A stretch of DNA of 64,000 nt, from the NCBI GenBank assembly GCA_963789955.1, contig CAWBMV010000020.1, positions 32,001 to 96,000 of the forward strand, in the 5' to 3' direction. The notes below the pieces were generated by a model. That model was given only the letters and a program-made list of their open reading frames with translations, ran no database searches and was not told where the DNA came from. Source of the stretch: an uncultured Candidatus Rokubacteria bacterium. Its GTDB lineage: Bacteria; Methylomirabilota; Methylomirabilia; Rokubacteriales; CSP1-6. A program made the position numbers and the translations under genes. This document shows, in pieces, positions 359 to 16,931 of the stretch (its first letter is position 1; each line of letters starts with the position of its first letter).

Positions 359-484
359 CTTACGTGAGAACAGTCCCCTCTGGCGCGGCGAGCGCGCCCG
401 CCGCATGATAGCGCAGGTCGCCCCGCGATCGCCGTGGTACGCTCAGCGGAGAACGGTCCGCGCAGTCCCGCGGGGAGAAGATTC

Positions 485-943
485 ATGGCCAACGAAGAAC
501 CGGAAGTTCTGATGCCGTTAGACGACCGGGCCGCCGGCGAGTTCGTCTCTCAGCCGGCGAAGCTCCTGCGAATCGCCGCGATGATCCGCGAGCTCCTGGA
601 AGAAGTGCGCAAATCTTCGCCGGACGAAGCGGGGCGCAGGCGCCTGCGCTCGATTTACCAGAAGTCGTTGACCTCGCTGAAGGACGGCTTGTCGCCGGAT
701 CTGCAAAAAGAGCTCGAGACGCTCACCTTGCCGCTCGACGGCACCTCGGGCGAATCCGAGATTCGCCTCGCACAGGCCCAGCTGGTCGGCTGGCTCGAAG
801 GATTGTTCCACGGCATTCAGGCCGCGCTGTGGGCGCAACACGCGCAAGCGCGCGCTGGTCTCGAGGAGATGCGCCGCCGTGGTCTGCCGCCAGGCGCACC
901 CGAGGGGCCCGGCGGGGATCATCGGCCCGGGCAGTACCTGTAG
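485..943 (+). CDS. bpa: Bacterial proteasome activator Bpa/PafE
   Basis: PAKLLRIAAMIRELLEEVR, EIRLAQAQLVGWLEGLFHGIQAAL and C-terminal GQYL docking motif. Confidence 0.92.
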   Translation: MANEEPEVLMPLDDRAAGEFVSQPAKLLRIAAMIRELLEEVRKSSPDEAGRRRLRSIYQKSLTSLKDGLSPDLQKELETLTLPLDGTSGESEIRLAQAQLVGWLEGLFHGIQAALWAQHAQARAGLEEMRRRGLPPGAPEGPGGDHRPGQYL

Positions 944-1382: not shown

Positions 1383-1550
1383 GTGCGCGTGCGTGCCTGG
1401 CTTTGTGTGATCGCGGGCATCTTGCTCGTCGTCGCCGCGTTTTTCATCACGGCGAAAGCGCCCACCTTCAACCCGTGGCCAAGCCTCGTCGTAGGCTTCG
1501 GTCTGACAGCCCTCGGGATCGTCTTTCGTGCGATCCGAAAGGAATCATAA
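1383..1550 (+). CDS. Small two-helix membrane protein
   Basis: GTG-start 55-aa ORF with two hydrophobic stretches (WLCVIAGILLVVAAFFIT; LVVGFGLTALGIVF). Confidence 0.45.
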   Translation: MRVRAWLCVIAGILLVVAAFFITAKAPTFNPWPSLVVGFGLTALGIVFRAIRKES

Positions 1551-1556
1551 AGCTCA

Positions 1557-1808
1557 ATGGCTACGCCTAATCCTGGGAAGAGAAAGCGCGAATCGCAAGC
1601 GGCGGCCGACACCAAGCTCCCGACGGAGCTTCAGATCGGCGATCGCCTCGCCGACGCGACCGGTGAGTGGGAGGTCATCGCTGCGCCCTACAGCACAGCG
1701 GGCGGGAGGATCATCCACGCGCGCGTCCAGAAAATTGGAGAGCCCGACAGTTGGGAGATTCGCAGCTGGGACGCGATGAAACGCGTGGGCGTGAAACTGT
1801 CCGGCTGA
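1557..1808 (+). CDS. Backbone family V small beta protein
   Basis: ELQIGDRLADATGEWEVIAAPYSTAGG; paralogous to 23166-23350 and fragment 17245-17278. Confidence 0.65.
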   Translation: MATPNPGKRKRESQAAADTKLPTELQIGDRLADATGEWEVIAAPYSTAGGRIIHARVQKIGEPDSWEIRSWDAMKRVGVKLSG

Positions 1809-1890
1809 TACGCGAGTGCTGCCGATCCTCCCGTGAGAGGATGAACCGATCGTCCCCTGGCAGGTAGGGTCGCGAAACTCCTGATGAAAG

Positions 1891-1935
1891 TGGTGAGCCG
1901 TGTGGGACTCGAACCCACGACCCCCTGATTAAAAG
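1891..1935 (-). repeat. att core copy 1 (3' 45 bp of tRNA-Lys)
   Basis: TGGTGAGCCGTGTGGGACTCGAACCCACGACCCCCTGATTAAAAG identical to 16154-16198 and 34843-34887. Confidence 0.97.
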
Positions 1936-2122
1936 ACGAGGGTCGGCGATGAGCCGGCCCTTAGTCTTTCTGCACCGTTCCGCACAACCGCGCGTTGCGA
2001 CTCGAATTCTCTTCCCTCGCCTCAGGGACTGAGCAGGACTCTCGGCGCACTCAAAGACTGAAATCGGCGTGTTTCGCGGGTGCGTTCAGCGCAAATCAGC
2101 GCAAGCCCGGAAACGCTGAGCC
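1936..2122. repeat. Conserved att-proximal arm with paired TCAGCGCAA repeats (2086-2094, 2096-2104)
   Basis: Clearly homologous to 16199-16385; same 9-mer pair at 16349-16367 and 34776-34796. Confidence 0.85.
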
Positions 2123-2132
2123 TCGTAGTCAG

Positions 2133-2280
2133 TCGAACCAGCCCGCGCACCGATCTGACTCCATGAGCGCGGCCTTTACCCGCGGCGAAGCCTCAGCGGT
2201 CCATCGCGTGTGCAGCATCACGCGCAGGATGCGGTTGATGCGGAGCCGGGGATGCCAGAGCCGGGCGTCGGCGTCGGTCG
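2133..2280 (-). repeat. Backbone module Z (DTDARLWHPxLRINRxLRVMLHTRW...)
   Basis: Other copies at 4562-4721(-), 15012-15093(+), 15605-15720(+), 16396-16560(-), 30149-30310(+). Confidence 0.85.
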
Positions 2281-2304
2281 CGGTTTCTTCTGCCCGCACG
2301 GCCG

Positions 2305-3168
2305 TTATCCGCTCTTCAGCTCTCGCAGAAGCGCGCGGTGGTTCTCGCTGCACGCGATGGCCTTGGGGTGGCTCGGCCCCAGCGCCGTCTCGAAGATCGC
2401 CAAGGCGCGCCGGTACAGCGGATCGGCCTCAGCGTATCGAGCCTGTGACTTGTAGAGGACGGCCAGGTTGTTCAGGGTCATAGCGATGTCGGGGTGCTCT
2501 GAGCCGAGAAGTTTCTCTTTAATGGCGAGGGCCCGTTGATAAAGCCGCTCGGCCTCCGCGGCTTCGCCCTTCGCTTGGTGGAGCGCGCCGAGATTGTTCA
2601 GGTTGACGGCGACTTCATAGTGGTGCGGCCCGTAGATGCGCTCGAAGACGGTCAAGGCACGCCGGAAGAGCGCTTCAGCCTCCTCGCGCTTGCCCTGACC
2701 GTCCAGAATCGCGGCAAGGGCCGCAGCGTCGGCGGCCACATCCGAATGATCCGGCCCGAGCACTCGCTCGCGGATCTCGAGCCCGCGTCGAGCGAAGGGC
2801 TCGCCCCGGGAATACTGGCCACGGGCGTGCTCGAGCCCGCCGAGGTTGTGGTAAAGCGCGGCGACCTCGACGGATGCCTCGTCACGCGCAGCGAGAAGGA
2901 TCGCGAGCGCGCGATGGTACACGCTCTCAGCCTCGTCGAAGCGCGCCTGATACTTGTGCAGGACCCCGAGGTTGTTCAGGAGCGTGGCGACCTCCGCGTT
3001 GCTCGGGCCGAGCGCGCGTTCGGCGATCCCCAGCGCCTGCCGAAATAACTGCTCGGCCCTCGCGTAGTATCCCTGTTCTCTCGCCGACTCAGCTAGACGG
3101 CCCAGGGCGCGCGCGCGGAGCCGCGCCACCACCCGGCCAGGGTGGAGGGAAGCTATCCAGATCATCAT
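2305..3168 (-). CDS. Stand-alone tetratricopeptide repeat protein (about six 42-aa kinesin-light-chain-type repeats)
   Basis: Repeats of AExLYxRALxIxExxLGxxHPxxAxxLNNLxxL; no HTH, catalytic domain or clear signal peptide. Confidence 0.9.
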   Translation of the reverse strand: MMIWIASLHPGRVVARLRARALGRLAESAREQGYYARAEQLFRQALGIAERALGPSNAEVATLLNNLGVLHKYQARFDEAESVYHRALAILLAARDEASVEVAALYHNLGGLEHARGQYSRGEPFARRGLEIRERVLGPDHSDVAADAAALAAILDGQGKREEAEALFRRALTVFERIYGPHHYEVAVNLNNLGALHQAKGEAAEAERLYQRALAIKEKLLGSEHPDIAMTLNNLAVLYKSQARYAEADPLYRRALAIFETALGPSHPKAIACSENHRALLRELKSG

Positions 3169-3209
3169 CGCTTCCTGCTCACCCCGTCTCCGCCGAACTG
3201 CGCCTTCTC

Positions 3210-3332
3210 CTACTGAGGGTCCCGGACCAGCGTCTCGTTGTGGTTGGTCGGAATGCTCGCCTCGCTGGCCATCGGGTACAGGGCGGCCATCGCCGCCGCC
3301 ATGCTGTAGAGGGCAAGGATAATCCGCTTCAT
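3210..3332 (-). CDS. Secreted HNET-motif peptide 3 (40 aa) MKRIILALYSMAAAMAALYPMASEASIPTNHNETLVRDPQ
   Basis: Manual translation; RBS AAGGAG; signal peptide ending SEA; paralogous to two upstream peptides. Confidence 0.85.
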   Translation of the reverse strand: MKRIILALYSMAAAMAALYPMASEASIPTNHNETLVRDPQ

Positions 3333-3358
3333 GGTCTTCTCCTTCTTGCGCGATGCCG

Positions 3359-3481
3359 TTACCGCCGGTCCCGGACCAGCGTCTCGTTGTGTTGCATGTT
3401 CATCCCCGCCTCGGCAACCACCGGGACTAGGGCCACAGCCACTGTCGCGAGCCAGAACAGCGTTCCCATGAGCTTCTTCAT
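3359..3481 (-). CDS. Secreted HNET-motif peptide 2 (40 aa) MKKLMGTLFWLATVAVALVPVVAEAGMNMQHNETLVRDRR
   Basis: RBS GGAGAGG; signal peptide ending AEA; same length and motif as paralogs. Confidence 0.85.
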   Translation of the reverse strand: MKKLMGTLFWLATVAVALVPVVAEAGMNMQHNETLVRDRR

Positions 3482-3528
3482 CGCCGTCGCCTCTCCGAAC
3501 TGATTCGGCCGATCCACCGTGCCTGGTT

Positions 3529-3651
3529 CTACCGGCCGTCGCAAACGCTCGTCTCGTTGTGGTTCGCCACGAGTTTCGCCTCGGCGATCATCGGGAACGC
3601 GGCCGCAGCCACCGTCGCCAGCCAGAACAGGGTGCCCGTGATCTGCCTCAT
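3529..3651 (-). CDS. Secreted HNET-motif peptide 1 (40 aa) MRQITGTLFWLATVAAAAFPMIAEAKLVANHNETSVCDGR
   Basis: RBS GGGAGGT; signal peptide ending AEA; same length and motif as paralogs. Confidence 0.85.
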   Translation of the reverse strand: MRQITGTLFWLATVAAAAFPMIAEAKLVANHNETSVCDGR

Positions 3652-3682
3652 CGCCGTCACCTCCCTTCGGGCGAACAGCGTC

Positions 3683-3699
3683 TGCGCATGACGTGCCAA
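3683..3699 (-). promoter_or_regulatory. Sigma54-like -24/-12 promoter of the peptide-TPR operon
   Basis: TTGGCACGTCATGCGCA: GG-N10-GC spacing with a perfect TGGCACG half, ~31 nt before peptide 1 ATG; the TT before GC is absent. Confidence 0.5.
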
Positions 3700-3929
3700 T
3701 CTTCTGGGGAGCAGAGGCGACAAGGTTTTCGCTGAATTGCATCGGCGCCGGGGCGTTGTGCCGGACGCCGACCGGGTATCTCGCCCGACGCTCGGCGGGC
3801 CGTGCGCCCTAGCGAAGGCGGAGCCGGCCGCGACCGTTCGACGCAATTACAACCAACGCGGGCTCACGCCCCGCGCTGATCCGCCGTTGCCAGCGGTCCT
3901 CCTCGACGGTCCAGCGCCCCTCTGCTTCA

Positions 3930-4225
3930 CCTTCCGCCACCGTTGCGTCGCGCACCGCGGCGTGCGCTCCCCACGCGGTGCCGGTCGCGCTCGTTGGTGA
4001 GTGTTCCATCCCGGTCGTGTAGAAGGTCGCGCGCCAGCCGCGCTCGTCGTACTGAGTCAACTGGAGATCGTAGCCCTGGCGGTGCATCCCAACGGCGACG
4101 TGCCCGATCCCGGACCACGAGTCGAGCCAGGAGCGCAGCGCGTGGAGTGCGCGGTCGTACGAGGGCAGCGAGCAGGTAGCGAATCCGAGGGCTGCCCGGA
4201 GGAGTCGGCCGCGTTGGTCGAGCAC
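3930..4225 (-). pseudogene. Backbone family X, C-terminus disrupted
   Basis: LDQRGRLLRAALGFA..SYDRALHALRSWLDSWSGIGHVAVGMHRQGYDLQLTQYDERGWRATFYTTGMEHSPTSATG. Confidence 0.85.
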
Positions 4226-4228
4226 GCG

Positions 4229-4421
4229 CTATTCGATGACCTCATCCGCCCGCAGCAGGAGCGACTGCGGAATCGTGGGCTTCGACGCGCGGGTCGGCCG
4301 AAGAAGGCGAACCGGCTCCCAGGAACCCGATGCGCCAGACTCGGGGCGTTTCCTGCGCCTCGACGGCGAGCGGCGCAAGCGCGAGGTAGAGCGCGAGAAT
4401 GACGAGCCCGATCAGCCGCAT
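4229..4421 (-). pseudogene. ABC substrate-binding protein with almost the whole interior deleted
   Basis: MRLIGLVILAL..RVWRIGFLG N-terminus joined to TIPQSLLLRADEVIE C-terminus. Confidence 0.85.
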
Positions 4422-4832
4422 GGACACCTCGGTTGGGATGGCTGGCGGGGAGTTTAGCCGAACGCTGCGAAGTGCACCAGCGCGGCGCCCCGCACGAGCA
4501 CCTCATCCAGATGCGGTCGCCCTCGACGCCGCCGTCCAGATCCCCGCGCCCGAGGTGCTCAATTGAACCATACCCCGCGCGCTGGACCTCGCTCCGCAGC
4601 GCGAGCGCCCGCCGGAACCCGACCCTGACCACGGACCACGCCTCCGCGCCCCATCGCGTGTGGAGCATCACGCGCTAGACGCGGTTGATGCGGAGCCAAG
4701 GGTGCCAGAGGCGGGCGTCGGGCGGCTCCTACTCGGGCTGCGCCCTTACCGATCACATATTTCGATAAGAGCGTAGACTAGTAATCGCCTTCCATCAGGC
4801 TCCAGGTTGGCGCGGCCTCGGCGTCACGCCTT

Positions 4833-5135
4833 GTGGCATCTGGCTTTGGTACCCTGCCGGACCTTGGAGACCTGACAATCCTGCGCGCAAAAGCCCGTGA
4901 AGCGATCCGTACTGGGAAACTACCATCCCGGCGACCTGACCGTACCTGGGGCGGGCCGGGTGTCGGTGCCGCCTGCGCGGTCTGCGGCGAGCCCATCAAG
5001 CGGGATCAACTGGAGTTGGAGACCCAGTTCGCCCACGACGGCGGCAACCCCGGACTGGACAAGTTCCATATCCACGTCCGCTGCTTCGCTGTGTGGGAGC
5101 TTGAACGCCGACAGGGCGGTCCCGCTCACAGTTAA
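4833..5135 (+). CDS. Small CxxC...HxxC putative zinc-binding protein (family U)
   Basis: IRTGKLP..GGPGVGAACAVC..FHIHVRCFAVWELER. Confidence 0.7.
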   Translation: MASGFGTLPDLGDLTILRAKAREAIRTGKLPSRRPDRTWGGPGVGAACAVCGEPIKRDQLELETQFAHDGGNPGLDKFHIHVRCFAVWELERRQGGPAHS

Positions 5136-5138
5136 CTC

Positions 5139-5380
5139 TTGGACCAGGAATCTCTCCGTCTTCTCATCCGGCGCAAGCTCCAGAACGGGCACCTGCCGAA
5201 CGACGGCATCCAAAAGTTTGGAGTAGTCGAAGCAACGGCGAAACGTGCGACGGTTGCGACGCGATCCTCCCGAAGGAACAGATGCTGATGGAAGGGGTGA
5301 CGATGGACCTTGGTAGAAAGCCCCTGCAGTTTCACGTCCGATGTTTCCAGGTCTGGGACCACGAACGGCGCGCCGCCTAA
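5139..5380 (+). CDS. Family U zinc-binding protein (one frameshift near 5212)
   Basis: LDQESLRLLIRRKLQNGHLP / VWSSRSNGETCDGC..FHVRCFQVWDHERRAA*; stop overlaps next ATG (TAATG). Confidence 0.65.
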
Positions 5381-5625
5381 TGGACGCGGAAGCCATCCGC
5401 GATCTCATCCGAACGAAGCTCCAAGCAGGTCGCTTGCCGCGCGACAGTACCCCGAGAGCGTTTGGGCGTCCGGGGAACTGGCAGAAGTGCGCCGCCTGCG
5501 AGGAGACTATGGCGAAGGCGCTGCGCATGATGGAGGTCTACCCGCTGACGAACGACAAGGTAGTTCGCTTTCACGCCGACTGCTACCAACTCTGGAACGA
5601 GGAGCGGCGCGCGCTGAAGTCGTAG
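5380..5625 (+). CDS. Family U zinc-binding protein
   Basis: IRTKLQAGRLP..GRPGNWQKCAAC..FHADCYQLWNEER. Confidence 0.72.
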   Translation: MDAEAIRDLIRTKLQAGRLPRDSTPRAFGRPGNWQKCAACEETMAKALRMMEVYPLTNDKVVRFHADCYQLWNEERRALKS

Positions 5626-5651
5626 CCCCACCGCGCTCACTCCGGTTTACT

Positions 5652-5770
5652 GACCGCCCCCCACGCGGCCCGCTGCGCCGCGCGCCAGGCGTGCGCCCCC
5701 CCACCCGGTGCCGATCGCGCTCGTGGGAGAGTGTTCCATCCCGGTCGTGTAGAACGTCGCGCGCCAGCCC
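5652..5770 (-). pseudogene. Family X C-terminal fragment
   Basis: GWRATFYTTGMEHSPTSAIGTGW. Confidence 0.8.
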
Positions 5771-6072
5771 TTTCCGCTCGGCTCCTCCCGGCGCAGCGTC
5801 GGATCGAGGAGACCCCGGAGCCAGCCTCCGCCATAAACGGCCATTCTCGGGAAGTCCGGCCCATCCCTCATGGCGTTACCACACACGCACAAGCTGGCTC
5901 TGCGCCGCCCATAGGTACGATCTGCCGTGGCATTCCACTTCGTTGCCCCGCGCGAGGCCAAACTACCTTAAGGGGTGACGTGCACGTGAAAACTTTTTCG
6001 TACTTGATCAGAATCCTTACCTGACTGAGACTGCTGGCCGCGCCCGCCAGGAACCCGCGGTGGGGGCCACGA

Positions 6073-9000
6073 ATGAAATTGCGATTTCATCTGCTCTGCT
6101 CTGTGATCTTGGTCGTGCTGTCACTCTCCCTTGTTGCCGGCGGCGACTCCGCCGAGCCCCTCCCGATCGTGCCGGCGTCGCTGATCCAGAAGGCGCTGGC
6201 GCAAGGGCAGATCCCCGTGATCGTGCGGCTGAGTATCGCCTGGACCCCGGAGCTGTCGCTGCCCAGTGCGGCGCACGTGGCGAATCAGCGCCAGGCGATT
6301 CAGACGCTTGCTGGCGCAGTAAAAGCCGCGCTCCGCGGGTTCAATCATCGCGTCAAACGCGAGTACGACGGACTGCCATTTCTAGCCCTCGTCATCGACG
6401 CGCAAGCGCTGCAGGCGCTCAACACTCTGCCGGGCATCGTGAGCGAGATGGTCGAGGACGAGCTCAGCAGGCCGCAGCTCGCGGAGAGCGTGCCGATCGC
6501 TTACCAGTCCGGCCCGGCATGGCCCGGCGAACTAGACGGAACCGGGACGGTGGTCGCGGTTCTCGACACCGGGGTGGACAAGACGCATGCCTTCCTCAGC
6601 GGCAAGGTCATCGCCGAGGCATGCTTTTCGACAACAGGGTCGGGCGCCACGAGTCTCTGTCCAGGGGGCGTGGATTCCACGGCTCCGGGCTCCGGCGTGA
6701 ACTGCACGGGCGCGGAAGACTGTGAGCACGGCACTCATGTGGCCGGCATCGTCGCCGGAGGCTCCACGGGGGTGTCAGGGGCGGGAGTGGCACCGGGATC
6801 GAAGCTCTGGGCGATCCAGGTCTTCTCGCGCATCGACGACCCCGTGCTCTGCGGCGGCTTCAATCCGTGCGTAGGCTCGTTCACTTCGGATCAAATCGCT
6901 GCCCTCAATTACGTCTTCAGGAATCGCGTCATGGCTGCGCTTGGCGGGCGCGCCGTCGCCGCGGTCAACATGAGCCTGGGCGCAGGCGCATTCTTGTCCA
7001 GTTGCGACGGCAATACCCGCAAACCTGCGATCGACAATCTGCGAGCGGCCGGAACTGCCACGGTCATCGCCTCGGGCAATGATGGCTCCATCAACGCAAT
7101 CTCTTCCCCGGCGTGCATCTCGACCTCGATCGCCGTCGGATCGACCGACGACGGTTCCCTGAGCACGACCCAGGACGTCGTTTCGTTCTTCTCGAACATA
7201 GGTCCGTTTGCCAACCTACTCCTCGCGCCAGGACAGTGGATTCTCTCGTCGGTGCCCGGCGGGTTCGTGAACCTCCGGGGCACGTCCATGGCCGCGCCTC
7301 ATGTGGCCGGCGCATTCGCTGTGTTGCGCCAGCACGCGCCCGATGTCAGCGTCACCACGCTGTTCGAGGCACTTCGCGACACAGGTCTCCCGATCGTCGA
7401 CACGCGCTCCGGCGGGCTCGAGACCAAGCCGCGAATCAGGATCGGCGAGGCGCTGTCGATGCTCGGCGAGGTCCGGTTCGGGACAGCCACCTTCAGCGTC
7501 GCGGAGGTCGATGGGACGGCCACCATCACGGTCGTCCGGACCGGGTCGACGGCCGGCCCGGCGACGGTGAACTTCGCGACCAGCAACGGAACAGCGATCG
7601 CGGGCACACATTACACGGCGACGAGCGGCACGCTGACATTCAATCCGGGTGAGAGCAGCAAGAGGTTCACCGTCGGCCTCGTCGACAACACTGTCGTCAA
7701 CGCCGATCGTACGGTGAAGCTGAAGCTCACGAGTCCGACGGGAGCAATGCTGGGCAATCCCTTCACCGCGGTACTGACGATCGTCAATGACGACAACGGC
7801 GGCGCCATCGCGTTCGCCGGCCCGAGTTTCTCCGTCGACGAGAACGCAGGGGTGGCGACGATCACGGTCGTCCGCAGCGGTACGAATCTGGCGAGCGGCG
7901 TCACGGTGCCGTTCAAAACGGCAAACGGCAGCGCGGTCGCGCCGGCGGACTATACCGCAACGGCGGGCACGTTGACCTTCGGGGCCGGCGAAACGAGCAA
8001 GACCTTCACCGTCCCCATCGTTAACGACACCCTCCTCGAGGGGAACAAGACGTTCCAGGTCTTGCTCGGCACGCCCGGGGGCGGCGGCGTCCTCGGCTCC
8101 CCCTCGACGGCGTCCGTGACGATCGTCGAGGACGATACGGCGGGCACCGTACAATTTTCGGCCCCGACCTTCACCGTCAACGAGGGTGCCGCCAGCGCGA
8201 TCATCACGGTCACGCGAACCGGGACGAACCTCACGGGCGGGGTGCGCGTCCGGTACGCCGCCACGAGCGGCACCGCGACGGCTGGCTCGGACTTCGGCGC
8301 CGTGTCGAACACGCTCACGTTCGGCGCCGGCGTGACGAGCATGACATTCGCCGTCCCGATAATCAACGACACGACGATGGAATCTCCCGAAACCGTGAAT
8401 CTCGCACTCACCGTGCCCGCCGGCAGTGCAGCGACGCTCGGCAGTCCGAGTACGGCCTTGCTGACCATTCAGGACAACGACGTCCTGGTCATCCAGTTCG
8501 CGGTCGCCGCGCAGAGCGTGACCGAAGGGGCCACGGCGAGTGTGGTGGTGACTCGAGCGAATAGCCTGAGCCTCGCCGTCAGTGCCGACTACCAGGTAAC
8601 GGGCGGAACCGCGACCGGCGGCGGCGTCGACTACACGCTGGCGAGCGGCACGGTGACCTTCGGCGCCGGGGTGACATCGGCGACGATCAAGATCCCGACT
8701 ATCAACGACACCCTGGCCGAGGGCCCCGAAACTATCGTACTGGGTCTCCAGAACCCGACGGGCGCCGCGACGCTGGGCGCTCGCACCCAGACGACCATCA
8801 CTATCACCGACAATGACAGCGGCGGGGTCATCCAGTTCGGCCTCGCCGCCTACAGCGTCGCCGAAAACATCTCCAGCGGCGGCTTCAACCTCACCGTCAC
8901 CCGCACCGGTACCAACCTGGCCTCCAATGTCTCCGTCGACTACGCCGTCACCGGCGGCTCCGCCACCAATGGCGTCGACTACACCCTGGCCAACGGCACG

Positions 9001-10569
9001 CTCACCTTCATCGCTGGCCAGACCTCGCTCCCCATCCCCGTCACGATCCTCGACGACCTCCTCCCCGACGGCAACAAAACCGTTGTCGTCACTCTCAGCA
9101 ACCCCTCCGCCCACGCCGCCCTCGGCACCATCAAGACCACCACCCTCACCATCCTCGATGCCGAGCAGGCGATCGGCTTCAGCTCCCCGAACTACTCCGT
9201 CACCGAGGGCAGCCCCTCCATCGCCATCCCCGTCCTCCGCGCCGGCCCCACCCCCGGCGGCGTCACCATCACCTGCCAGACCGTCGCCGGCGGCACCGCC
9301 ATCCCCGACGTCGATCACAAGTCCGTCAACACCACCCTCACCTTCGCCGCCGGTAGCCGCCTCGTGAACTGTATCGTCCCCATCCTCAACGACACCCTCG
9401 TCGACGGTTCCCGCACCGTCAACTTGGCGCTGTCCGGCGACCCCGCCCTCCTCATCCCCTCTCGGTCCACCGCCGTCCTCACCACCAGTGACAATGATCA
9501 GGGCGGCGTCCTCCGCTTCTCTGCTGCTACCGCCTCCGTCACCGAGGGCGGCACCGCCACCGTCACCGTCACCCGCACCGGCGTCAACCTCGCCAGCGAC
9601 GTCACCGTCGACTACCTCGTCACCGGCGGCTCCGCCACTGGCGATGGTGTCGACTACACCCTGGCCAACGGCACCCTGTCCTTCGGCGCCGGCGTTACCA
9701 GCCGCACCTTCACCGTCCCTACCGTCAACGACACCCTCGCTGAGGGCCCCGAGACCATCACCATCGCCCTCGCCAACCCCACCGGCGGCGCCTCCCTCGG
9801 CGCCCCGGCCACCACTACCCTCACCATCGTCGATAACGACCACGGCGGGGTCATCGCCTTCGCGCTGGCGACCTACACGGTGACCGAAGGGAATTCGGTC
9901 ACGCTGACGGTCAAGCGGATCGGGGCCAGCCTGGCGTCCAACGTCACCGTGGATTACGCCGTGACCGGAGGAACGGCAACCAACGGCAGCGACTTCAGCC
10001 TGCCGAACGGCACGTTGACGTTCAAGGATGGGGAGACGACGAAGACAATCGGCGTCGCCATCCCCGAGGACGGTATCGCCGAGGGCAGCGAGACGTTTGT
10101 GATGACCCTTGGCAACCCCGGCGGCGGCGCCACGCTTGGCTCACCGGCGAGCACGACCATCACGATTCGCGATGCCGCCCAGGTGCGGTTCTTCAACAGC
10201 CTGGTCCTCTGCAATCCCTCGTGTCAGAACTTCACGGCGCGCCTCACCACGGGCCAGGGTCACGTCTGGGAGTCGGTCAGCAGCGTTGCCTCACCGTATC
10301 AGGCGGTGCCCGAGCCGCAGCTGACGAACCGCGTCGTCGAGGCTGTAGAGTTCGGCATCAGCGTCTCGTTCCCGGGCTCATTCACGATCACCCCGGCCAG
10401 TCCCGACCTGATCGTGTTGAGCGTCGACAGCACGGGCACCCCCGTGCTCCTTCTCTTCGACGAGGGAAAGCTTGCGACGTCCGCCGAGGCCGCCCTGGAC
10501 GGCAGCCTTGGGACCCCGAGCGCGCCGTTGCCACCCGGCGCACGATTCCAGCAGCTCCGGGCGCCGTGA
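6073..10569 (+). CDS. Secreted S8 subtilisin-like peptidase with eight Calx-beta repeats
   Basis: Signal peptide, propeptide, triad motifs VLDTGVD / HGTHVAG / GTSMAAPHVAG, eight FxxxxxxVxE...DY...GTLTF...TIxDND repeats. Confidence 0.93.
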   Translation: MKLRFHLLCSVILVVLSLSLVAGGDSAEPLPIVPASLIQKALAQGQIPVIVRLSIAWTPELSLPSAAHVANQRQAIQTLAGAVKAALRGFNHRVKREYDGLPFLALVIDAQALQALNTLPGIVSEMVEDELSRPQLAESVPIAYQSGPAWPGELDGTGTVVAVLDTGVDKTHAFLSGKVIAEACFSTTGSGATSLCPGGVDSTAPGSGVNCTGAEDCEHGTHVAGIVAGGSTGVSGAGVAPGSKLWAIQVFSRIDDPVLCGGFNPCVGSFTSDQIAALNYVFRNRVMAALGGRAVAAVNMSLGAGAFLSSCDGNTRKPAIDNLRAAGTATVIASGNDGSINAISSPACISTSIAVGSTDDGSLSTTQDVVSFFSNIGPFANLLLAPGQWILSSVPGGFVNLRGTSMAAPHVAGAFAVLRQHAPDVSVTTLFEALRDTGLPIVDTRSGGLETKPRIRIGEALSMLGEVRFGTATFSVAEVDGTATITVVRTGSTAGPATVNFATSNGTAIAGTHYTATSGTLTFNPGESSKRFTVGLVDNTVVNADRTVKLKLTSPTGAMLGNPFTAVLTIVNDDNGGAIAFAGPSFSVDENAGVATITVVRSGTNLASGVTVPFKTANGSAVAPADYTATAGTLTFGAGETSKTFTVPIVNDTLLEGNKTFQVLLGTPGGGGVLGSPSTASVTIVEDDTAGTVQFSAPTFTVNEGAASAIITVTRTGTNLTGGVRVRYAATSGTATAGSDFGAVSNTLTFGAGVTSMTFAVPIINDTTMESPETVNLALTVPAGSAATLGSPSTALLTIQDNDVLVIQFAVAAQSVTEGATASVVVTRANSLSLAVSADYQVTGGTATGGGVDYTLASGTVTFGAGVTSATIKIPTINDTLAEGPETIVLGLQNPTGAATLGARTQTTITITDNDSGGVIQFGLAAYSVAENISSGGFNLTVTRTGTNLASNVSVDYAVTGGSATNGVDYTLANGTLTFIAGQTSLPIPVTILDDLLPDGNKTVVVTLSNPSAHAALGTIKTTTLTILDAEQAIGFSSPNYSVTEGSPSIAIPVLRAGPTPGGVTITCQTVAGGTAIPDVDHKSVNTTLTFAAGSRLVNCIVPILNDTLVDGSRTVNLALSGDPALLIPSRSTAVLTTSDNDQGGVLRFSAATASVTEGGTATVTVTRTGVNLASDVTVDYLVTGGSATGDGVDYTLANGTLSFGAGVTSRTFTVPTVNDTLAEGPETITIALANPTGGASLGAPATTTLTIVDNDHGGVIAFALATYTVTEGNSVTLTVKRIGASLASNVTVDYAVTGGTATNGSDFSLPNGTLTFKDGETTKTIGVAIPEDGIAEGSETFVMTLGNPGGGATLGSPASTTITIRDAAQVRFFNSLVLCNPSCQNFTARLTTGQGHVWESVSSVASPYQAVPEPQLTNRVVEAVEFGISVSFPGSFTITPASPDLIVLSVDSTGTPVLLLFDEGKLATSAEAALDGSLGTPSAPLPPGARFQQLRAP

Positions 10570-10694
10570 ACTAAGCCCGCTCTTGCGGAGTCTTGAGACT
10601 CTAGCGGGATGACCCTGGCCGTTCGCGTTGTGACTTTGCGGTCGCGCTTCGTCGTCATGCTCATCATTCTAGCGCGCTGTGGTGGCCGGCCGGC

Positions 10695-10803
10695 GGCGGC
10701 GAGGGCGACCGCGTCTGGATGACGCGCTCGCGCGGCGCGGTGCTGGTGCGCGTCGCGCCATTCGGCTAGACTCCCCGCCAGCCATCCCACACCGAGGTGC
10801 ACC
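10695..10803 (+). promoter_or_regulatory. Module S remnant plus conserved SBP leader (TAGACT -10-like box, GAGGTG RBS)
   Basis: TTCGGCTAGACTCCCCGCCAGCCATCCC..CCGAGGTGCACCATG; recurs at 4422-4560(-), 20002-20095(-), 25348-25425(+), partially at ~14210 and ~30685. Confidence 0.65.
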
Positions 10804-11784
10804 ATGCGGTTGATCGGGCTCGCGGTCGTGCTCGCTGTCAGTCTCACTCTTGTGCCGCTCGCCGCTGAGGCGCAGCGGGCTGGAAGGGTGTGGCGCATCG
10901 GCTGGCTCTCTCCGCCTCCGGCGGCGACAGGCGCGTCCGAATTGGAGGCGCTCCGAAAGGGCCTGCGGGAGCTGGACTACATCGAGGGACGGAACCTCGT
11001 TATAGAGGCCCGCTGGGCAGACGGTGACCCCGCGCGGCTGCCACGGCTCGCCCGCGCGTTCGTGGAACTCAAGGTGGACGTCATTTGCACCGCCGGGACC
11101 CCTGCGACCCTCGCCGCAAAACAGGCAACCACGACCATCCCGATCGTCTTCGGCCGGGCGGCGTTTCCGGACCGCACCGGCCTCGTCGGGAGTCTGGCGC
11201 GACCAGGCGGCAATCTGACCGGTGTCGCGTTCATTGGGCCCGAGTATGGCAAGCGGTTGGAGCTCCTTCGGGAAGTCTCGCCGAAAATCTCGCGGGTCGT
11301 ACTGCTCTACAACGACCAGAACACCGCAAGCGTGATGGCCATGAACGAAACCCAGGAGTGGGCCAAGGCTCTGCAGGTCGCGATTGAACCATTGGGCGTG
11401 CACGACCGTGTCAGCCTGGAGGCGGCCTTCGCCGCCATTCGCCCCGGAAGGTCTCACGCTCTCATGACGACGGCGGACCCTCTCCTGGCGTCGTTCCGCA
11501 CACTGATTGTGAAATTCGTGAACGGGCACCGCCTCATGTCGATGTATGGCGACCGAGACTACGTTGTGGCCGGCGGACTAATGTTCTATGGGACCAGCAC
11601 GGCGGACATGTGGCGTCACGCCGCCATCTACGTCGACCGGATCTTGAAGGGCGCGACGCCGGGCGACCTGCCGGTGGAGCAACCCACCAAGTTCGAGCTC
11701 GTTATCAACCTCAAGACCGCGAAGGCGCTCGGCCTGACGATTCCGCAATCACTGCTGCTGCGGGCGGACCAGGTCATCGAATAG
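10804..11784 (+). CDS. Orphan ABC transporter substrate-binding protein (ABC_sub_bind-like)
   Basis: [52 protein letters not shown]; no permease or ATPase nearby. Confidence 0.9.
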   Translation: MRLIGLAVVLAVSLTLVPLAAEAQRAGRVWRIGWLSPPPAATGASELEALRKGLRELDYIEGRNLVIEARWADGDPARLPRLARAFVELKVDVICTAGTPATLAAKQATTTIPIVFGRAAFPDRTGLVGSLARPGGNLTGVAFIGPEYGKRLELLREVSPKISRVVLLYNDQNTASVMAMNETQEWAKALQVAIEPLGVHDRVSLEAAFAAIRPGRSHALMTTADPLLASFRTLIVKFVNGHRLMSMYGDRDYVVAGGLMFYGTSTADMWRHAAIYVDRILKGATPGDLPVEQPTKFELVINLKTAKALGLTIPQSLLLRADQVIE

Positions 11785-11787
11785 CCC

Positions 11788-12111
11788 GTGCTCGACAAGC
11801 GCGGACGTCTTCTCGGAGCGGCGCTCGGATTCGCCGGGCTCCCGTTGCCCTCGTACGACCGCGCGCTCCACGCGCTGCGCTCCTGGCTCGACTCCTGGTC
11901 CGGGATAGGGCACGTCCCCGTTGGGCTGCACCGCCAGGGCTTCGATCTCCAACTGACGCAGTACGACGAGTGCGGTTGGCGGGCCACTTTCTACACGACC
12001 GGGATGGAGCACTCGCCCACGAGTGCGACGGGCACCGCGTGGGAGCGCACGCCGTGGCATGCGGTGCACCAGGCGGCGTGGGAGGCGTTGAAGAGGCCAG
12101 AGAGCGGTTAG
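11788..12111 (+). CDS. Backbone family X protein, intact (107 aa)
   Basis: GTG start 3 nt after SBP stop; full family motif through WERTPWHA..AAWEAL. Confidence 0.8.
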   Translation: MLDKRGRLLGAALGFAGLPLPSYDRALHALRSWLDSWSGIGHVPVGLHRQGFDLQLTQYDECGWRATFYTTGMEHSPTSATGTAWERTPWHAVHQAAWEALKRPESG

Positions 12112-12117
12112 GAGGAG

Positions 12118-12288
12118 CCACACCAGCCGCTTCCGCGAAATTGCGGCCGCGATCTCGAAGCTGTCCTCGCGCGCCCTGATGCTCGCCGGCGAGGTGGCGA
12201 TCTACGACCAGTAGCTGCGCTCTCGGTTCGAGTGGCTACGCGAGCTCGATCCGGACGCCGGCGTGACGCCGCCTGTGTTCATGGCGCT
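12118..12288 (+). pseudogene. ATP-dependent DNA ligase fragment
   Basis: HTSRFREIAAAISKLSSRALMLAGEVAIYDQ*LRSRFEWLRE..TPPVFMA, homologous to 29390-29550. Confidence 0.75.
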
Positions 12289-12409
12289 TACTCGCCGAGC
12301 TCGACGCCTTCTTCCATGCTAAGTAACACTTACTCGACCGTCCGTCTCCTGACGGTCCGCCTTCGGCCTCGAAAGCGTAAGTGCCTGGTCTTCCGGGATA
12401 CTTCGACGG

Positions 12410-12425
12410 TGGCATTTCGTCTGCA
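12410..12425 (+). promoter_or_regulatory. Sigma54-like promoter
   Basis: TGGCATTTCGTCTGCA (GG-N10-GC) ~40 nt before ATG 12467. Confidence 0.5.
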
Positions 12426-12466
12426 CTCACAAACTGACAGCACGAAATCCTCGAGAGGAGCGTCAC

Positions 12467-12832
12467 ATGAACATGCGACCGCTCATCGCTGGGTTCGTCG
12501 TCGGTGAAATCGTACTGAGCGCAACGTCGCTCGTCGGGCAAACACTCGACATCAAGCCACCGACCACGGGGCCGGAGATCCGTCCGGATCACAACCAACG
12601 CCGGGGGGACAAATCCTCTGTAGCACGTCCCGGACTGAATGAGCCTCACTTCATCTCACCGTTCTCGGTGAACGCTGACGCGGGACAGCTGGGGATCGCG
12701 GGCTGGACCGCCACGAATCCGAACGTCCCGCCAGGCCATTCCCTGTCGGGGGACGGAGCCGGATCGCTCGGTTTCGGGGTCGCCGCCGAGTGGCGTGCGC
12801 GTCCGAGGAGCGAGAAGACCCTGATTCGATGA
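12467..12832 (+). CDS. Secreted hypothetical protein
   Basis: RBS GAGGAG, hydrophobic N-terminus, ATGA overlap with next gene. Confidence 0.6.
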   Translation: MNMRPLIAGFVVGEIVLSATSLVGQTLDIKPPTTGPEIRPDHNQRRGDKSSVARPGLNEPHFISPFSVNADAGQLGIAGWTATNPNVPPGHSLSGDGAGSLGFGVAAEWRARPRSEKTLIR

Positions 12833-13872
12833 CACCCGAGATGGCGGCCGGTGTCGACGTTGCCCCATCGAACGGTGAGCGCCGTCGCCCTGAGGGCAGG
12901 CATCGGTACTTTCTCGCGCAGAGACTGCGACAGTTGAAGAGCACGGCTCGGTTGAAAATGCGTTGCTTCGCGGTGTGGTCGGTAATGCCCGTGACCGTGA
13001 TCCTGGTCGTGGGCGCGGAGGCGACCGGGGTCTCGGCCCGTGACGGGCGGCTCGTGCCGGGCGGCGACAGCATCGCCGAGGCGGTGACCCATCGCACATC
13101 GCTGGGGCACCTCACGCGACCGGACGGTCGCGAAGAGACGCTTGCGGCGTTGCGGTTCCGATGGCCGGTATACGGCCCGATCAGTTCCGACTTCGGCGCG
13201 CGGCGCCCATCCCGGACGGGATTTCACGCCGGCGTAGACATCGGCGCCAGCCGGGGCACATTTGTTCGCGCGCCAGCGGGCGGCACCGTGGCCTTCGTCG
13301 GGTGGCGTAGCGGCTACGGCAGGACGATTGTCATCGATCACGGTCATCTGATCAGCACCCTCTATGGACATCTCGCGAAGTCGGACGTGGTACGAGGACA
13401 GACGGTCGAGGAGGGGGCCGGGATCGGCCTGATCGGCGCGACCGGGCACGCGTCGGGGCCGCATCTGCACTATGAGGTTCTGGTGAACGGTCGGCCCGTC
13501 AACCCTCGGCTTGTATTCGCTAGGCCACAGGACATCTACGGTCGATCCCGGGTCGCGGCGCGCGAGAACCCCAGCGGTCAGCGGGAGGCCACGTCGATCC
13601 CTTCCTCGACGGACGCCACGAGCAGCTGGCAGGGTTGGCGGCGCGTCGCGCCGTTGCCGCATACCCCCGAATTCGCCGCCTCCGGCGGCTTGATCAGCTA
13701 CGGAAACAGCCTTGCCGATGCGTACCGCCTCGAGGGCAAGTATGCGGGTCGGCTCCTCAAACTGCCGGTGCAGCAGTCGGTGAAGACCGAACTGGTCATC
13801 AAGACTGCGCAGGCCCTCGGGCTGACGATCCCGCAGACGCTGCTACAGCGGCCGGATCAAGTCATCCAGTAG
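12829..13872 (+). CDS. M23 (LytM) peptidase fused in frame to a degenerate SBP C-terminus
   Basis: FHAGVDI (HxxxD), GYGRTIVIDH, TLYGHL, GPHLHYEV (HxH); from ~13666 EFAASGGLISYG..LPVQQSVKTELVI..TIPQTLL. Confidence 0.8.
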   Translation: MTPEMAAGVDVAPSNGERRRPEGRHRYFLAQRLRQLKSTARLKMRCFAVWSVMPVTVILVVGAEATGVSARDGRLVPGGDSIAEAVTHRTSLGHLTRPDGREETLAALRFRWPVYGPISSDFGARRPSRTGFHAGVDIGASRGTFVRAPAGGTVAFVGWRSGYGRTIVIDHGHLISTLYGHLAKSDVVRGQTVEEGAGIGLIGATGHASGPHLHYEVLVNGRPVNPRLVFARPQDIYGRSRVAARENPSGQREATSIPSSTDATSSWQGWRRVAPLPHTPEFAASGGLISYGNSLADAYRLEGKYAGRLLKLPVQQSVKTELVIKTAQALGLTIPQTLLQRPDQVIQ

Positions 13873-13875
13873 CGC

Positions 13876-14199
13876 GTGCTCGACCAACGCGGCCAGTTCC
13901 TCCGTGCGGTTGTCGGCTTCGCCGGATGCTCTATGCCCTCGTATGACCGCGCCCTCTGGGCTCTCCGCATCTGGCTGGACTCCTGGACTGGTATCGGACA
14001 CGTCGCTGTCGGGATGCACCGCCAAGGCTACGACCTGCGATTGACTCAGTACGATGAGCGAGGTTGGCGGGCGACGTTCTATACGACGGGGATGGAGCAC
14101 TCGCCCACCAGCGCGACGGGCACCTCATGGGAGCGTACGCCGTGGCACGCAACGCAGCGGGCGGCGTGGGACGCGCTGGACCGCGCGAGCCGCCCGTAG
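13876..14199 (+). CDS. Backbone family X protein, intact (107 aa)
   Basis: Close paralog of 11788-12111 with the same TAG-3nt-GTG coupling. Confidence 0.8.
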   Translation: MLDQRGQFLRAVVGFAGCSMPSYDRALWALRIWLDSWTGIGHVAVGMHRQGYDLRLTQYDERGWRATFYTTGMEHSPTSATGTSWERTPWHATQRAAWDALDRASRP

Positions 14200-14327
14200 T
14201 TCGGCTCTGGTAGACTCCCGCCGACAAGGTGACGGTGTCGAAGGGCTTTGAACAGCGCACGCGAGCAGGAGCCTGCTGGCTCATGCAGAGGGAAGGAGTC
14301 GGCAGGCGTCCTGTTCGTATCGCGCGT

Positions 14328-14805
14328 CTAGAAGAATCCTCCGATGTGGATCACCATCATCGCCGCCCCATCAAGCTCGACCCTGCCGAACGCATCACGG
14401 CAGAAAAGGGTGACGCTCCCCGTGGTCCCTTCAGGCACGTTGATCCCGCCTATCACGGTGATTTCGTGCGCGTCGCGAGTGAAAGCCGAAAAGCCACCCG
14501 AGGAGCGACTCCCTCCAATCACGCCATTCTGGCCGTTGCGCAACTGGCAGTCCGTAGACATCGACTTCTCGTCTTGTACCCCCTTCCTCTGTGCGCTCGG
14601 ACGATCCAACCGCCGATGCTGTCGCAATGACAACATAATTTCCTGGCGAGAGAGGCTGGTCGATGATTTTCTCGAAGAAGCTGAGATCCCCGCTTTGGAC
14701 AATGTGCCCTGCGAACGCAAAGTGCGCCGTCGAGGCCCCGACTCCGGCTGGACCCGCCGGACCGGCTGGACCCGTGGGCCCCGCTGGCCCGACGAGCCCG
14801 AGGGC
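14328..14805 (-). pseudogene. Collagen-like protein, C-terminal part (5'-truncated, frameshift near 14580)
   Basis: GLVGPAGPTGPAGPAGPAGV then ..PLSPGNYVVIATA / DCQLRNGQNGVIGG..VTLFC..MMVIHIGGFF*. Confidence 0.6.
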
Positions 14806-14834
14806 AACCGAACTGCGCTCACCTTCGTACCGAT

Positions 14835-15009
14835 GGAAGGGTCACTGACCGATACCCTCGGCTGGCTCTTCGGGACTAGCCGCTACCAAGACTGGATTAC
14901 ACGACGATCGAGCAACGGGGCTACCGTGCGCCTGACCGACAGTCAGACTGTTGCGTACCTCTGTGTCCCCGACACCTGGGACGGCCCAAGCGGGCCGAAG
15001 GGGAAATAA
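14835..15009 (+). pseudogene. Family W C-terminal fragment
   Basis: Ends YLCVPDTWDGPSGPKGK*, directly followed by module Z. Confidence 0.65.
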
Positions 15010-15182
15010 AACGACACCGACGCCCGCCTCTGGCACCCCCGGCTCCGCATCAACCGCATTCTGCGCGTGATGCTGCAGACGCGATGGAGCGCGTCGCCGT
15101 TCTGCGGGCCGAGGCGTGACGCCGATCTGCTGGGCTGTTCGGGCGCCCTCAGCGATCATGGAAGATCAGGAGGGTCGAAAGA

Positions 15183-16133: not shown

Positions 16134-16153
16134 GAGATCGCTGGCGAAGAACT

Positions 16154-16924: not shown

Positions 16925-16931
16925 GATCCAC

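Follow-up and report, generated by a model that had tools for sequence, protein, structure and literature searches.

What might three tandem 123-nt genes, each encoding a 40-residue pre-peptide with a Sec-type signal peptide, be doing directly ahead of a gene for a stand-alone tetratricopeptide repeat (TPR) protein at the distal end of a tRNA-integrated island? The peptide genes, here called pepA, pepB and pepC, and the TPR gene lie in a 64,000-nt stretch of DNA from an uncultured Candidatus Rokubacteria bacterium (contig CAWBMV010000020.1, positions 32,001 to 96,000), the whole of which we call the window. We give even chances to the view that this locus is a peptide-ligand/TPR-receptor module with a regulatory role. 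The three small peptide genes are real and far above chance expectation, because the peptide family and its TPR partner recur in other genomes and in many metagenome contigs, and because their synonymous codons vary. The family to which they belong is previously unannotated, spans several phyla and is found in soil bacteria.

The order on the minus strand is promoter element, pepA, pepB, pepC and TPR gene (Table 1). A ribosome-binding site of the GGAGG, GAGAGG or AAGGAG type stands 6-9 nt ahead of each peptide ATG, and each pre-peptide begins with a basic N-terminus (MRQ, MKK or MKR) that leads into ~17 hydrophobic residues in a Sec-type layout, with Pro at -6, an (A/S)-E-A site ending at residue 25 and a polar 15-residue tail thereafter. 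The open reading frames (ORFs) thus bear out the preliminary description, made from the letters of the sequence, which had reported three tandem genes with their own ribosome-binding sites, signal peptides and 15-residue tails. It had further divided the tail into a variable pentapeptide and an HNET block; the conserved block stands, but the variable part is four residues long, not five, because the block begins one residue earlier, at [N/Q]HNET. P20, E24, A25, H31-N32-E33-T34, V36 and D38 are identical in all three peptides, and the core in the window is the nine-residue [N/Q]HNET(L/S)V(R/C)D. By their n/h/c layout, these are adjacent small genes for propeptides of an apparently exported type, with the predicted ligand part at the C-terminus. 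The pepA core differs from the family consensus, NHNETLV(R/S)(D/E), at two positions (L35S and R37C); its metagenome counterpart in locus L069 has NHNETLIRDSR at the equivalent place, with NHNETLIRD as the core. Since positions 35 and 37 fall in the predicted interface with the TPR protein, pepA may be a weakened or specialised copy. A search of the bacterium's own genome found no fourth peptide copy.

How far does the core extend beyond this genome? An exhaustive profile search of 1.84 billion protein representatives gave 235 clusters at E<=1e-3 and 28 at E<=1e-10, and a word-indexed protein search gave 11 metagenome proteins of 40-56 aa that are 68-100% identical to pepB. At least 125 metagenome stretches match a DNA pattern for NHNETLVR(D/E), as do 42 stretches among 185,579 species genomes, and the module is rare in genome collections. 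A pattern scan on the Acidobacteriota side, covering 401 genomes sampled around the Pyrinomonadaceae genome G251, matched none but G251, which is not evidence of absence elsewhere. Three 40-aa peptides had been described; these are indeed members, but the family is much broader and takes in multi-core precursors and C-terminal tags. Many of the profile-matched proteins have 2-12 matched stretches (12 in P0012, of 431 aa, and six in P0013, of 207 aa). Among the matches listed, which comprise 120 loci, the longest reading frame holds 1-17 cores and the core stands behind at least five types of leader: a Sec-type signal peptide with a single core, as in the window (22 loci); repeats of ..VELSVEELEEVIAPG-x(3-6)-core (26 loci); LE(E/G)RIAP-x-core (12 loci); VKTxVKAGG-x-core (8 loci); and, in secreted multi-core proteins, a Cys loop, Cx4CG-x-core (8 loci). 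The IELSEEDLEAIVGG-type repeats of P0127 and P0057 match double-glycine bacteriocin and lanthipeptide leader models. By a rough regular-expression count, the motif forms the C-terminal end of 140-200-aa secreted proteins with their own signal peptides in ~16 of the 120 loci. Some short contigs from an RNA library (run X17) match the motif regions only, with two motif copies 62-75 letters apart vs 122-124, and are probably other multi-core family members in a metatranscriptome.

All synonymous codons occur at the motif positions in 238 distinct motif copies (ACG, ACC, ACT and ACA for Thr; CTC, CTG, TTG, CTT and CTA for Leu), one copy per metagenome locus having been picked by amino-acid pattern, and the core is therefore conserved at the protein level. 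Among 25 signal-peptide-type genes, the ratio of nonsynonymous to synonymous substitution rates (dN/dS) is ~0.56 for the signal peptide, ~1.1 for the four flank residues and ~0.06 for the core, this last figure being conditioned by the pattern-based search. Protein-level conservation with free synonymous variation is what purifying selection on the HNET core would leave, and absence of such selection had been named as grounds for abandoning the module. The suggestion that the module is undescribed also holds: no Pfam or NCBIfam model covers the core, since scans of the window peptides (E<=1) and of seven multi-core relatives (E<=0.1) gave chance or leader matches only. No paper in the searched literature matched the core motif, the shorter string NHNET returned unrelated papers only, as judged by title and abstract, and a query on the combination of TPR, Acidobacteria and ribosomally synthesized and post-translationally modified peptides (RiPPs) returned one unrelated review. 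Only unnamed clusters, with scores <=0.78, were found for pepB in the ESM Atlas.

The proposed link between peptides and TPR gene recurs elsewhere. When ORFs of at least 100 aa were clustered from 35 loci of at least 2.5 kb, window included, the TPR protein formed the largest cluster, present in 25 of the 35 and in all 25 encoded directly downstream of the peptide gene(s). Three of the ten loci without it stop at a contig edge just past the peptides (L026, L045 and L089) and two are chance pattern matches (L037 and L075), so that 30 loci are informative and the TPR gene adjoins the peptides in 25 of them, whatever the leader type. The match in L037 (2306-2331) is an exact NHNETLVRD inside an IclR-type regulator with an IclR_C domain. 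Within the window's phylum, a TPR orthologue at E<=1e-60 is found in 7 of 251 genomes, and NHNET peptides lie beside the TPR gene in all five peptide-bearing genomes of the 251 (G000, G100, G109 with two loci, G186 and G206). G206 (L145) has its two peptide genes behind the TPR gene instead of ahead of it, and both G206 and G186 (L146) have a further leader type, ..TVKDL(A/P)PK.. followed by ..NHNETL(V/L)LD. The Pyrinomonadaceae genome G251 has four clustered peptide genes and exactly one TPR match (E 4e-142), after the fourth, all in 7 kb. In this locus (L013, ~2760-10682) the four NHNET-tagged genes are interleaved with three genes for large secreted proteins: a 385-aa protein without a family match, a 462-aa protein whose helical domain weakly resembles that of vanadium haloperoxidases and a 982-aa protein that contains a PKD domain; the single TPR gene comes last, and a divergent pair encoding an extracytoplasmic function (ECF) sigma factor and a Ser/Thr kinase lies upstream.

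What kind of protein is the partner? Pfam and NCBIfam scans show five to six TPR_12/TPR_10 repeats and no other domain in the window protein, in agreement with the roughly six repeats and missing effector domain first described; neither a helix-turn-helix (HTH) nor any other output domain was found by either scan in its 287 residues. Matches to TPR_12 (E 6.6e-65, 215.7 bits vs a cut-off of 30.1) and TPR_10 (E 6.8e-60, 197.9 bits vs a cut-off of 27.5) exceed the gathering thresholds across most of the protein, TPR_NPHP3 is also matched, and all 21 Pfam families at E<=1 are generic TPR or helical repeats. The closest solved relatives in the PDB profile search are the TPR domains of the kinesin light chains (KLC) KLC1/2, with the KLC2 domain at E 2.6e-75. 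An RRNPP receptor, the TPR-type receptor of Rap-Phr and similar systems, is absent from the 33 PDB matches at E<=1e-10, and no RRNPP-specific Pfam family appears at E<=1. The best NCBIfam match is FxSxx_TPR (NF040586), at 110.3 bits vs a cut-off of 300, and it covers the repeat region alone of the 830-position model. The window protein can be aligned end to end with 19 partner TPRs that represent every leader type, and the set has in common a signature of N65, K72, HNLGGLEHARG at 107-117, AADxAALA at 145-152 (within AADxAALAxxLD), N191/N192, N233/N234 and a C-terminal HPKxxxCRENY. The phage collection gave no TPR match at E<=1e-40, and the plasmid collection gave generic TPR_12 proteins only. 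In two relatives, L018 (TPR frame from 7357) and L034 (from 6924), the TPR frame lacks an ATG, GTG or TTG all the way from the upstream stop to its conserved N-terminal region, and the first such codon comes 75 or 88 codons in. The TPR frame there overlaps the 3' end of the peptide gene, where the codons for NHNETLVRD yield RPTTTRRWFG when taken in the other frame, an arrangement that suggests a non-canonical start or some coupling.

To model the complex, the TPR alignment (19 rows) was combined with 25 signal-peptide-type peptides, with pepC as the first row. The preliminary description had proposed modelling the TPR protein with each 15-mer and with scrambled peptides, and the model made here favours the true pair: the complex scores 0.75 (runs 0.70, 0.75 and 0.78) and the best of three controls 0.02. 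The runs have at least 72% of contacts in common, and the predicted local distance difference test (pLDDT) value of the partner is at least 62. On the peptide side, the confident part of the interface takes in residues 25-38 and 40, matching the mature 15-mer as predicted, and leaves the signal peptide out; on the side of the TPR protein it runs from repeat 1 (27 and 61-73) through the cap (269-280) and includes the invariant N65, K72, H107/N108, G110-L112, H114, D147, N191/N192, N233/N234, C273 and N276. The tightest predicted pairs join peptide N32 to TPR H114/A149/A150/A153, E33 to 188/N191/N192/230, T34 to N192/A195/N234, L35 to 230/N233/N234/269/272 and V36 to N234/237/N276. Mostly, the contact residues of the TPR protein are invariant columns of the partner-TPR alignment. 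The 15-mer is thus predicted, with controls, to sit in the TPR groove on an invariant Asn ladder.

Is the locus controlled and expressed? The sigma54-like promoter described earlier stands as an element. Its spacing fits, and rpoN is encoded in the bacterium's own genome. Of 20 signal-peptide-type loci, among which the window locus and L069 are near-identical, 9 have the pattern TGGC[AG][CTG]N7GC ahead of their first peptide gene, against a background of 145 in 5796 windows of 130 nt (2.5%). Sigma54 activators adjoin the relatives L011, L034, L042 and L086, and none was identified beside the window locus. In 6 of the 11 loci without the pattern, the peptide gene comes directly behind a di-haem protein gene. 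No sigma70-like promoter was found in 1800-4300. Contigs that are 95-99% identical, from four soil RNA libraries of four studies, cover 3083-3508, 3250-3482, 3287-3482 and 2340-2554, the first of them spanning the TPR start, pepC and pepB; ~2556-3065 and ~3576-3760 have no RNA-contig cover, which is uninformative either way.

The genes that accompany the pair in its relatives vary with the lineage. An ORF cluster (c2) recurs in ten loci (L013, L024, L026, L045, L060, L073, L079, L081, L087 and L089); the representatives scanned are Ser/Thr kinases with a PD40/WD40 propeller or a TPR region, except that the L087 member is a PD40/S9 peptidase. An ECF sigma factor (PF07638/TIGR02999) adjoins c2 in 8 of the 10, and the pair lies upstream of or divergent from the peptide operon. 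Directly behind the TPR gene of six loci with EELEEVIAP/LEERIAP-type leaders comes a gene for a ~890-aa fusion of an M50 metalloprotease half and an HlyD half. The protease half resembles intramembrane leader peptidases of the daptide and YydH/LiaK types, with scores of 176-215 bits that fall short of the cut-off of 300, and a PqqD-like domain, or RiPP recognition element (RRE), was found at E 2e-5 in one of three c13 representatives scanned (L058). A di-haem MauG/MbnH-like protein is encoded directly upstream of the peptide in at least five Rokubacteria-type loci, and two further short contigs carry the apparent 3' end of a di-haem gene upstream. In the Rokubacteria type, a LuxR-type regulator occurs in four loci and a sigma54 activator in four, and one locus has a histidine kinase and a response regulator as neighbours. 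None of these variable neighbour types is universal and none adjoins the window locus. Upstream of the window locus lie small ORFs without annotation, and its neighbours within ~8 kb also include genes for an S8/Calx-beta protease, an ABC binding protein and an M23 peptidase.

How would such a module work? A sigma54-dependent promoter would drive pepA, pepB, pepC and the TPR gene as a single operon. Each 40-aa pre-peptide, judging by its sequence features, would be exported by Sec and cleaved after (A/S)EA, and cleavage would free a polar 15-mer made up of a variable tetrapeptide, the core and two residues. In the model this 15-mer would lie extended along the concave groove of six TPRs, touching the invariant Asn/His ladder. 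The TPR protein might then serve as a sensor of the peptide, or keep it sequestered, and exert its effect on a third partner, as in Rap-Phr systems and without homology to them. The module would be accessory and horizontally mobile, and here the cargo of an island. That the pair is a regulated ligand and receptor is suggested by the lack of an output domain in the TPR protein and by the ECF/Ser-Thr kinase pairs, sigma54 activators, LuxR-type regulators and histidine kinase with response regulator that adjoin its relatives; we favour a regulatory role because the precursors look like Phr peptides and the neighbourhood is regulatory in nearly every lineage. The preliminary description had spoken of a signalling or peptide-binding module and had set RRNPP systems beside it: binding has the backing of the model, signalling would be a further step, and the system shows no homology to RRNPP receptors.

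Several observations weigh against this regulatory reading. The binding is a prediction only, from a model. KLC TPR-cargo peptide complexes have been solved and are the closest PDB relatives, so the complex score may partly reflect memory of the KLC binding mode, and the score mark, reached by 116 of 157 solved complexes and by 2 of 215 mismatched pairs, is a calibration that holds only roughly because custom alignments were used. The 54-82% identity of the 19 partner TPRs to the window protein is less extreme than it appears: generic plasmid TPR_12 proteins, some annotated fxsT, reach 43-47% (maximum 47.5%), and it is therefore signature and position, not identity alone, that define the clade. 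Linkage counts are not independent, because many metagenome loci are near-duplicates (L032/L040, L011/L042 and L034/L082 among them), and five of the ten TPR-less loci (L012, L031, L048, L060 and L073) are true exceptions. Two genomes of one genus, G120 (L142, 91% complete) and G129 (L144, 81%), encode TPR orthologues that are 65-71% identical, with HNRGG replacing HNLGG, and no NHNET peptide was found near the TPR gene or elsewhere in either genome; these may be orphan or re-purposed receptors. Conversely, the Binatia genome G252 has a peptide and, among 46 candidates, no TPR orthologue at E<=1e-40. Its locus (L012) has a signal-peptide-type NHNET peptide gene followed, in the place of the TPR gene, by one for a secreted FGE-sulfatase-domain protein. 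Expression, which had been proposed as a check, finds weak support in the near-identical RNA contigs and no proof of transcription, because RNA libraries can hold DNA and a contig across several genes shows no single transcript.

Compartments add to these difficulties. With N-terminal hydrophobic segments judged by eye, the compartments of TPR protein and product agree in 13 of 19 aligned pairs: in the Cys-loop and tag types both have such a segment (signal peptide or anchor), and in the leader types neither has. They disagree in six signal-peptide-type pairs, the window's included, where the peptides have a signal peptide and the TPR protein has none, so that a meeting of the two needs binding before export or re-import. 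No peptide importer or oligopeptide permease adjoins the window locus, the nearby PF04392 binding protein being of another family. TPRs with hydrophobic segments, and secreted proteins that bear the motif as a tag, speak for a tag/receptor or chaperone role no less than for signalling. Finally, known peptide quorum sensing works with diversified pheromones, and this core does not vary from phylum to phylum. The alternatives stay alive because of this invariant core, the multi-core precursors with RiPP-type proteases, the whole-protein tags and the varying compartment of the TPR protein.

Could the locus make a RiPP-type product, with the NHNET units as cores or as follower/recognition sequences and the TPR protein as a scaffold or chaperone for the precursor in processing and export, the enzymes being lineage-specific or unlinked? 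The multi-core precursors with repeated leader-core units, double-glycine leaders included, would suit such a pathway, as would the PqqD-like/M50/HlyD fusion that follows the TPR gene in six loci and the MauG/MbnH-like protein upstream of the peptide in Rokubacteria-type loci; leader-type precursor and TPR protein, both lacking a signal peptide, would moreover meet in the cytoplasm before export. Yet no tailoring enzyme is common to all locus types, and the TPR protein is the sole near-universal partner. When a RiPP role was first raised, no tailoring enzyme was seen next to the window peptides; the scan of neighbours within ~8 kb agrees, and these peptides have a Sec signal peptide instead of a leader. 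The conserved part is also polar and without Cys, and its Ser/Thr content is limited to one Thr. We regard a RiPP product as unlikely, though worth keeping in view, and for the relatives it stays open, given the leader peptidase/exporters or di-haem enzymes of some lineages. Double-glycine leaders and HlyD-type export in some relatives, together with the mobile island and an order of peptide gene(s) then small partner gene that is typical of class II bacteriocin loci, would equally suit antimicrobial peptides that the TPR protein neutralises in the producer. The mature parts, however, are short, polar and charged, neither amphipathic nor membrane-active; a cross-phylum invariant core is unusual for weapons in an arms race; immunity proteins are not known to include TPR proteins; and PADLOC and the family libraries gave nothing specific. 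A bacteriocin is accordingly very improbable in our estimation. An anti-phage defence role was also considered and dropped, PADLOC having given generic TPR, subtilase and kinase-domain matches only.

The core might instead be a sorting or tethering tag, NHNETLV(R/S)(D/E), and the TPR protein a docking receptor that retains, delivers or clusters the tagged products. Several features speak for this idea: the motif terminates secreted proteins, the TPR protein has an N-terminal hydrophobic segment in tag and Cys-loop multi-core loci, the sequence N-terminal of the core varies at a dN/dS of ~1, and a single TPR serves three to four different tagged products. In the window and its closest relatives, on the other hand, the peptides have an export signal and the TPR protein does not, and the window cargo would be merely four residues; in many precursors the motif is internal and repeated rather than C-terminal, and no transport machine is common to the locus types. 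We think a docking tag rather unlikely, though less so than a bacteriocin. That the small ORFs are not genes at all, being chance ORFs or untranslated leader elements ahead of an ordinary TPR gene, might be supposed from their 40 codons and from the wealth of spurious ORFs in DNA of ~66% G+C; the supposition is already contradicted, and has next to no chance of being right, since length, start codon, ribosome-binding site and motif are kept across phyla with synonymous variation and longer proteins repeat the motif in frame, as many as 17 times. A reading as an upstream ORF or attenuator was likewise dropped in view of the protein-level conservation across phyla.

The setting of the locus is a tRNA-integrated island, with direct repeats of the tRNA 3' end flanking the insert and an integrase gene beside the tRNA gene (Table 1). 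Two islands lie in tandem, an inner one (~16199-34842) and an outer one (1936-16153), anchored at the integrase and tRNA-Lys, and ~340 nt inside each distal repeat are ~80% alike. No second integrase copy was found within the window, and the outer island is without its own. The GC content is 0.64-0.66 within the islands and 0.69 past the tRNA. From the layout of repeats and integrase, the peptide-TPR operon is the last cargo at the distal end of the outer island. In L009, the closest relative (TPR 82% identical), a tRNA-Ser gene lies ~350 nt past the TPR gene. An Rfam scan of 1500-4500 gave sub-threshold matches only, on the tRNA-derived repeat, and no radical SAM gene was found among the scanned window neighbours. 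Other ORFs near by include one of 138 aa with no family match just upstream of the promoter (3809-4225, minus strand), with a partial second copy 1.8 kb away (5647-5961, minus strand). Its N-terminus, MLDQRGRLL..AA.GFA, recurs in ORFs ahead of the peptide gene in the relatives L006 (375-578) and L007 (462-611), where the ORF is truncated or overlaps a LuxR-type gene. Two further ORFs encode paralogous 94-100-aa proteins with a CxxC...H..C-like pattern and no Pfam family (4833-5135 and 5341-5625, plus strand), and another in the same island encodes a secreted S8 subtilase of 1498 aa that contains eight Calx-beta domains (6073-10569, plus strand), with no sign of a role in peptide processing. 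Just beyond the island border lies a gene for the bacterial proteasome activator Bpa (434-943, plus strand; PF10759, 3.5e-50).

Table 1. Features of the peptide-TPR locus and of the island that carries it (window coordinates)
Feature	Position	Strand	Basis and remarks
pepA	3529-3651	-	123-nt ORF, 40-aa pre-peptide MRQITGTLFWLATVAAAAFPMIAEAKLVANHNETSVCDGR; tail KLVA-NHNETSVCD-GR
pepB	3359-3481	-	123-nt ORF, 40-aa pre-peptide MKKLMGTLFWLATVAVALVPVVAEAGMNMQHNETLVRDRR; tail GMNM-QHNETLVRD-RR
pepC	3210-3332	-	123-nt ORF, 40-aa pre-peptide MKRIILALYSMAAAMAALYPMASEASIPTNHNETLVRDPQ; tail SIPT-NHNETLVRD-PQ; 41 nt upstream of TPR gene
Stand-alone TPR protein	2305-3168	-	287 aa, KLC-type, capping helix; Pfam, PDB profile search; presumed partner of NHNET core
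sigma54-type -24/-12 element TTGGCACGTCATGCGCA	3683-3699	-	fits -24 GG/-12 GC spacing; 47 nt upstream of pepA ATG
45-nt exact copy of tRNA-Lys(UUU) 3' end, outer att-type border	1891-1935		repeat search
Identical 45-nt copy	16154-16198		repeat search
45-nt copy within tRNA gene	34843-34887		repeat search
Island-end segment between att repeat and TPR stop	1936-2276		~80% identical to 16199-16557, inner-island end
Tyrosine integrase gene	34164-34838	+	Pfam Phage_integrase 1.1e-34; abuts tRNA
Intact tRNA-Lys(UUU) gene	34843-34918	-	ARAGORN

What would follow if the module is what we take it to be? The nine-residue motif is accompanied by a single TPR clade in several soil phyla, where it stands behind at least five export leaders and beside several kinds of regulator. 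A bolder extension, which we offer tentatively and think doubtful, is that NHNETLV(R/S)(D/E) serves as a peptide word across phyla, with one orthologous TPR receptor to read it, in a horizontally mobile system for signalling or tagging that diderm soil bacteria (Rokubacteria, Acidobacteriota, Binatia and others) connect to the regulators each host has. Receptor-adjacent signalling of the RRNPP type has so far been described from Bacillota and the mobile elements they carry. If true, this would be the first receptor-adjacent peptide communication system outside Bacillota, with delivery by Sec, by double-glycine-type leaders or by RRE-protease-HlyD exporters, and the invariance of the core could let different phyla share one signal. 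For the ECF-sigma/Ser-Thr-kinase pairs of Acidobacteria-like bacteria, which are poorly understood, the peptide is a possible ligand. Whatever the output, a testable peptide-protein pair with a predicted interface is gained, and motif and TPR signature together provide a search handle for hundreds of hypothetical small ORFs in soil metagenomes.

How does the module compare with systems already known? The likeness to Rap-Phr and other RRNPP(A) systems is one of design: a gene for a ~40-aa Sec-exported pre-peptide whose active, polar part is C-terminal, beside a gene for a TPR-type peptide-binding protein, and often on mobile elements. Rap, like the window TPR protein, is without a DNA-binding domain. 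Tandemly repeated propeptides are known in RRNPP-type systems, as the portion of one report used here describes (PMC11343458). The window TPR protein nevertheless has no sequence relationship to RRNPP receptors by Pfam and PDB profile search, nor an HTH or other output domain. The peptide genes here lie upstream of the receptor gene and are multiplied, with a core that is invariant and not diversified, and the hosts are Rokubacteria, Acidobacteriota and others, with the TPR protein apparently exported in some lineages. In the part of an RRNPP survey on which we draw, peptide systems are described as a Bacillota trait (PMC10075063); set against that part of the survey, the module occurs in phyla lacking described systems of such kind.

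The multi-core RiPPs of the daptide MpaP type and the YydH/LiaK type resemble the relatives in repeated leader-core units, GG-type leaders, a PqqD-like domain and M50-HlyD proteins; no tailoring enzyme is shared, however, the protease matches reach 176-215 bits vs 300, and the machinery is absent from the window, which has Sec signals instead. In FxSxx-COOH systems a TPR_12-type protein is likewise paired with small peptides bearing a conserved C-terminal motif, but the window peptides end in GR, RR and PQ, no radical SAM/SPASM gene is near by, and NF040586 is matched below its cut-off. As systems of tag and dock, PTS1-PEX5, EEVD-TPR co-chaperones and KLC-cargo motifs offer themselves for comparison. 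For the TPR protein itself, kinesin light chains and bacterial KLC-like proteins are the ones to compare. Kinesin light chains bind their cargo peptides extended in the concave groove on Asn residues, and the recognition of short linear motifs by KLC-type TPRs is mainly eukaryotic. The window TPR protein, with its six TPR_12-type repeats, has KLC as its closest solved relative and is modeled to hold a short extended peptide in the same way. It differs in lacking the heptad or motor-binding region and in its own set of signature residues; the motif it is predicted to bind, NHNETLVRD, bears no relation to the W-acidic and Y-acidic cargo motifs, and the ligand here is encoded adjacently and seems to be exported. 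The idea of a peptide gene beside a TPR gene is thus known from RRNPP systems and motif recognition is known from KLC, and the present module is homologous to the latter and analogous to the former.

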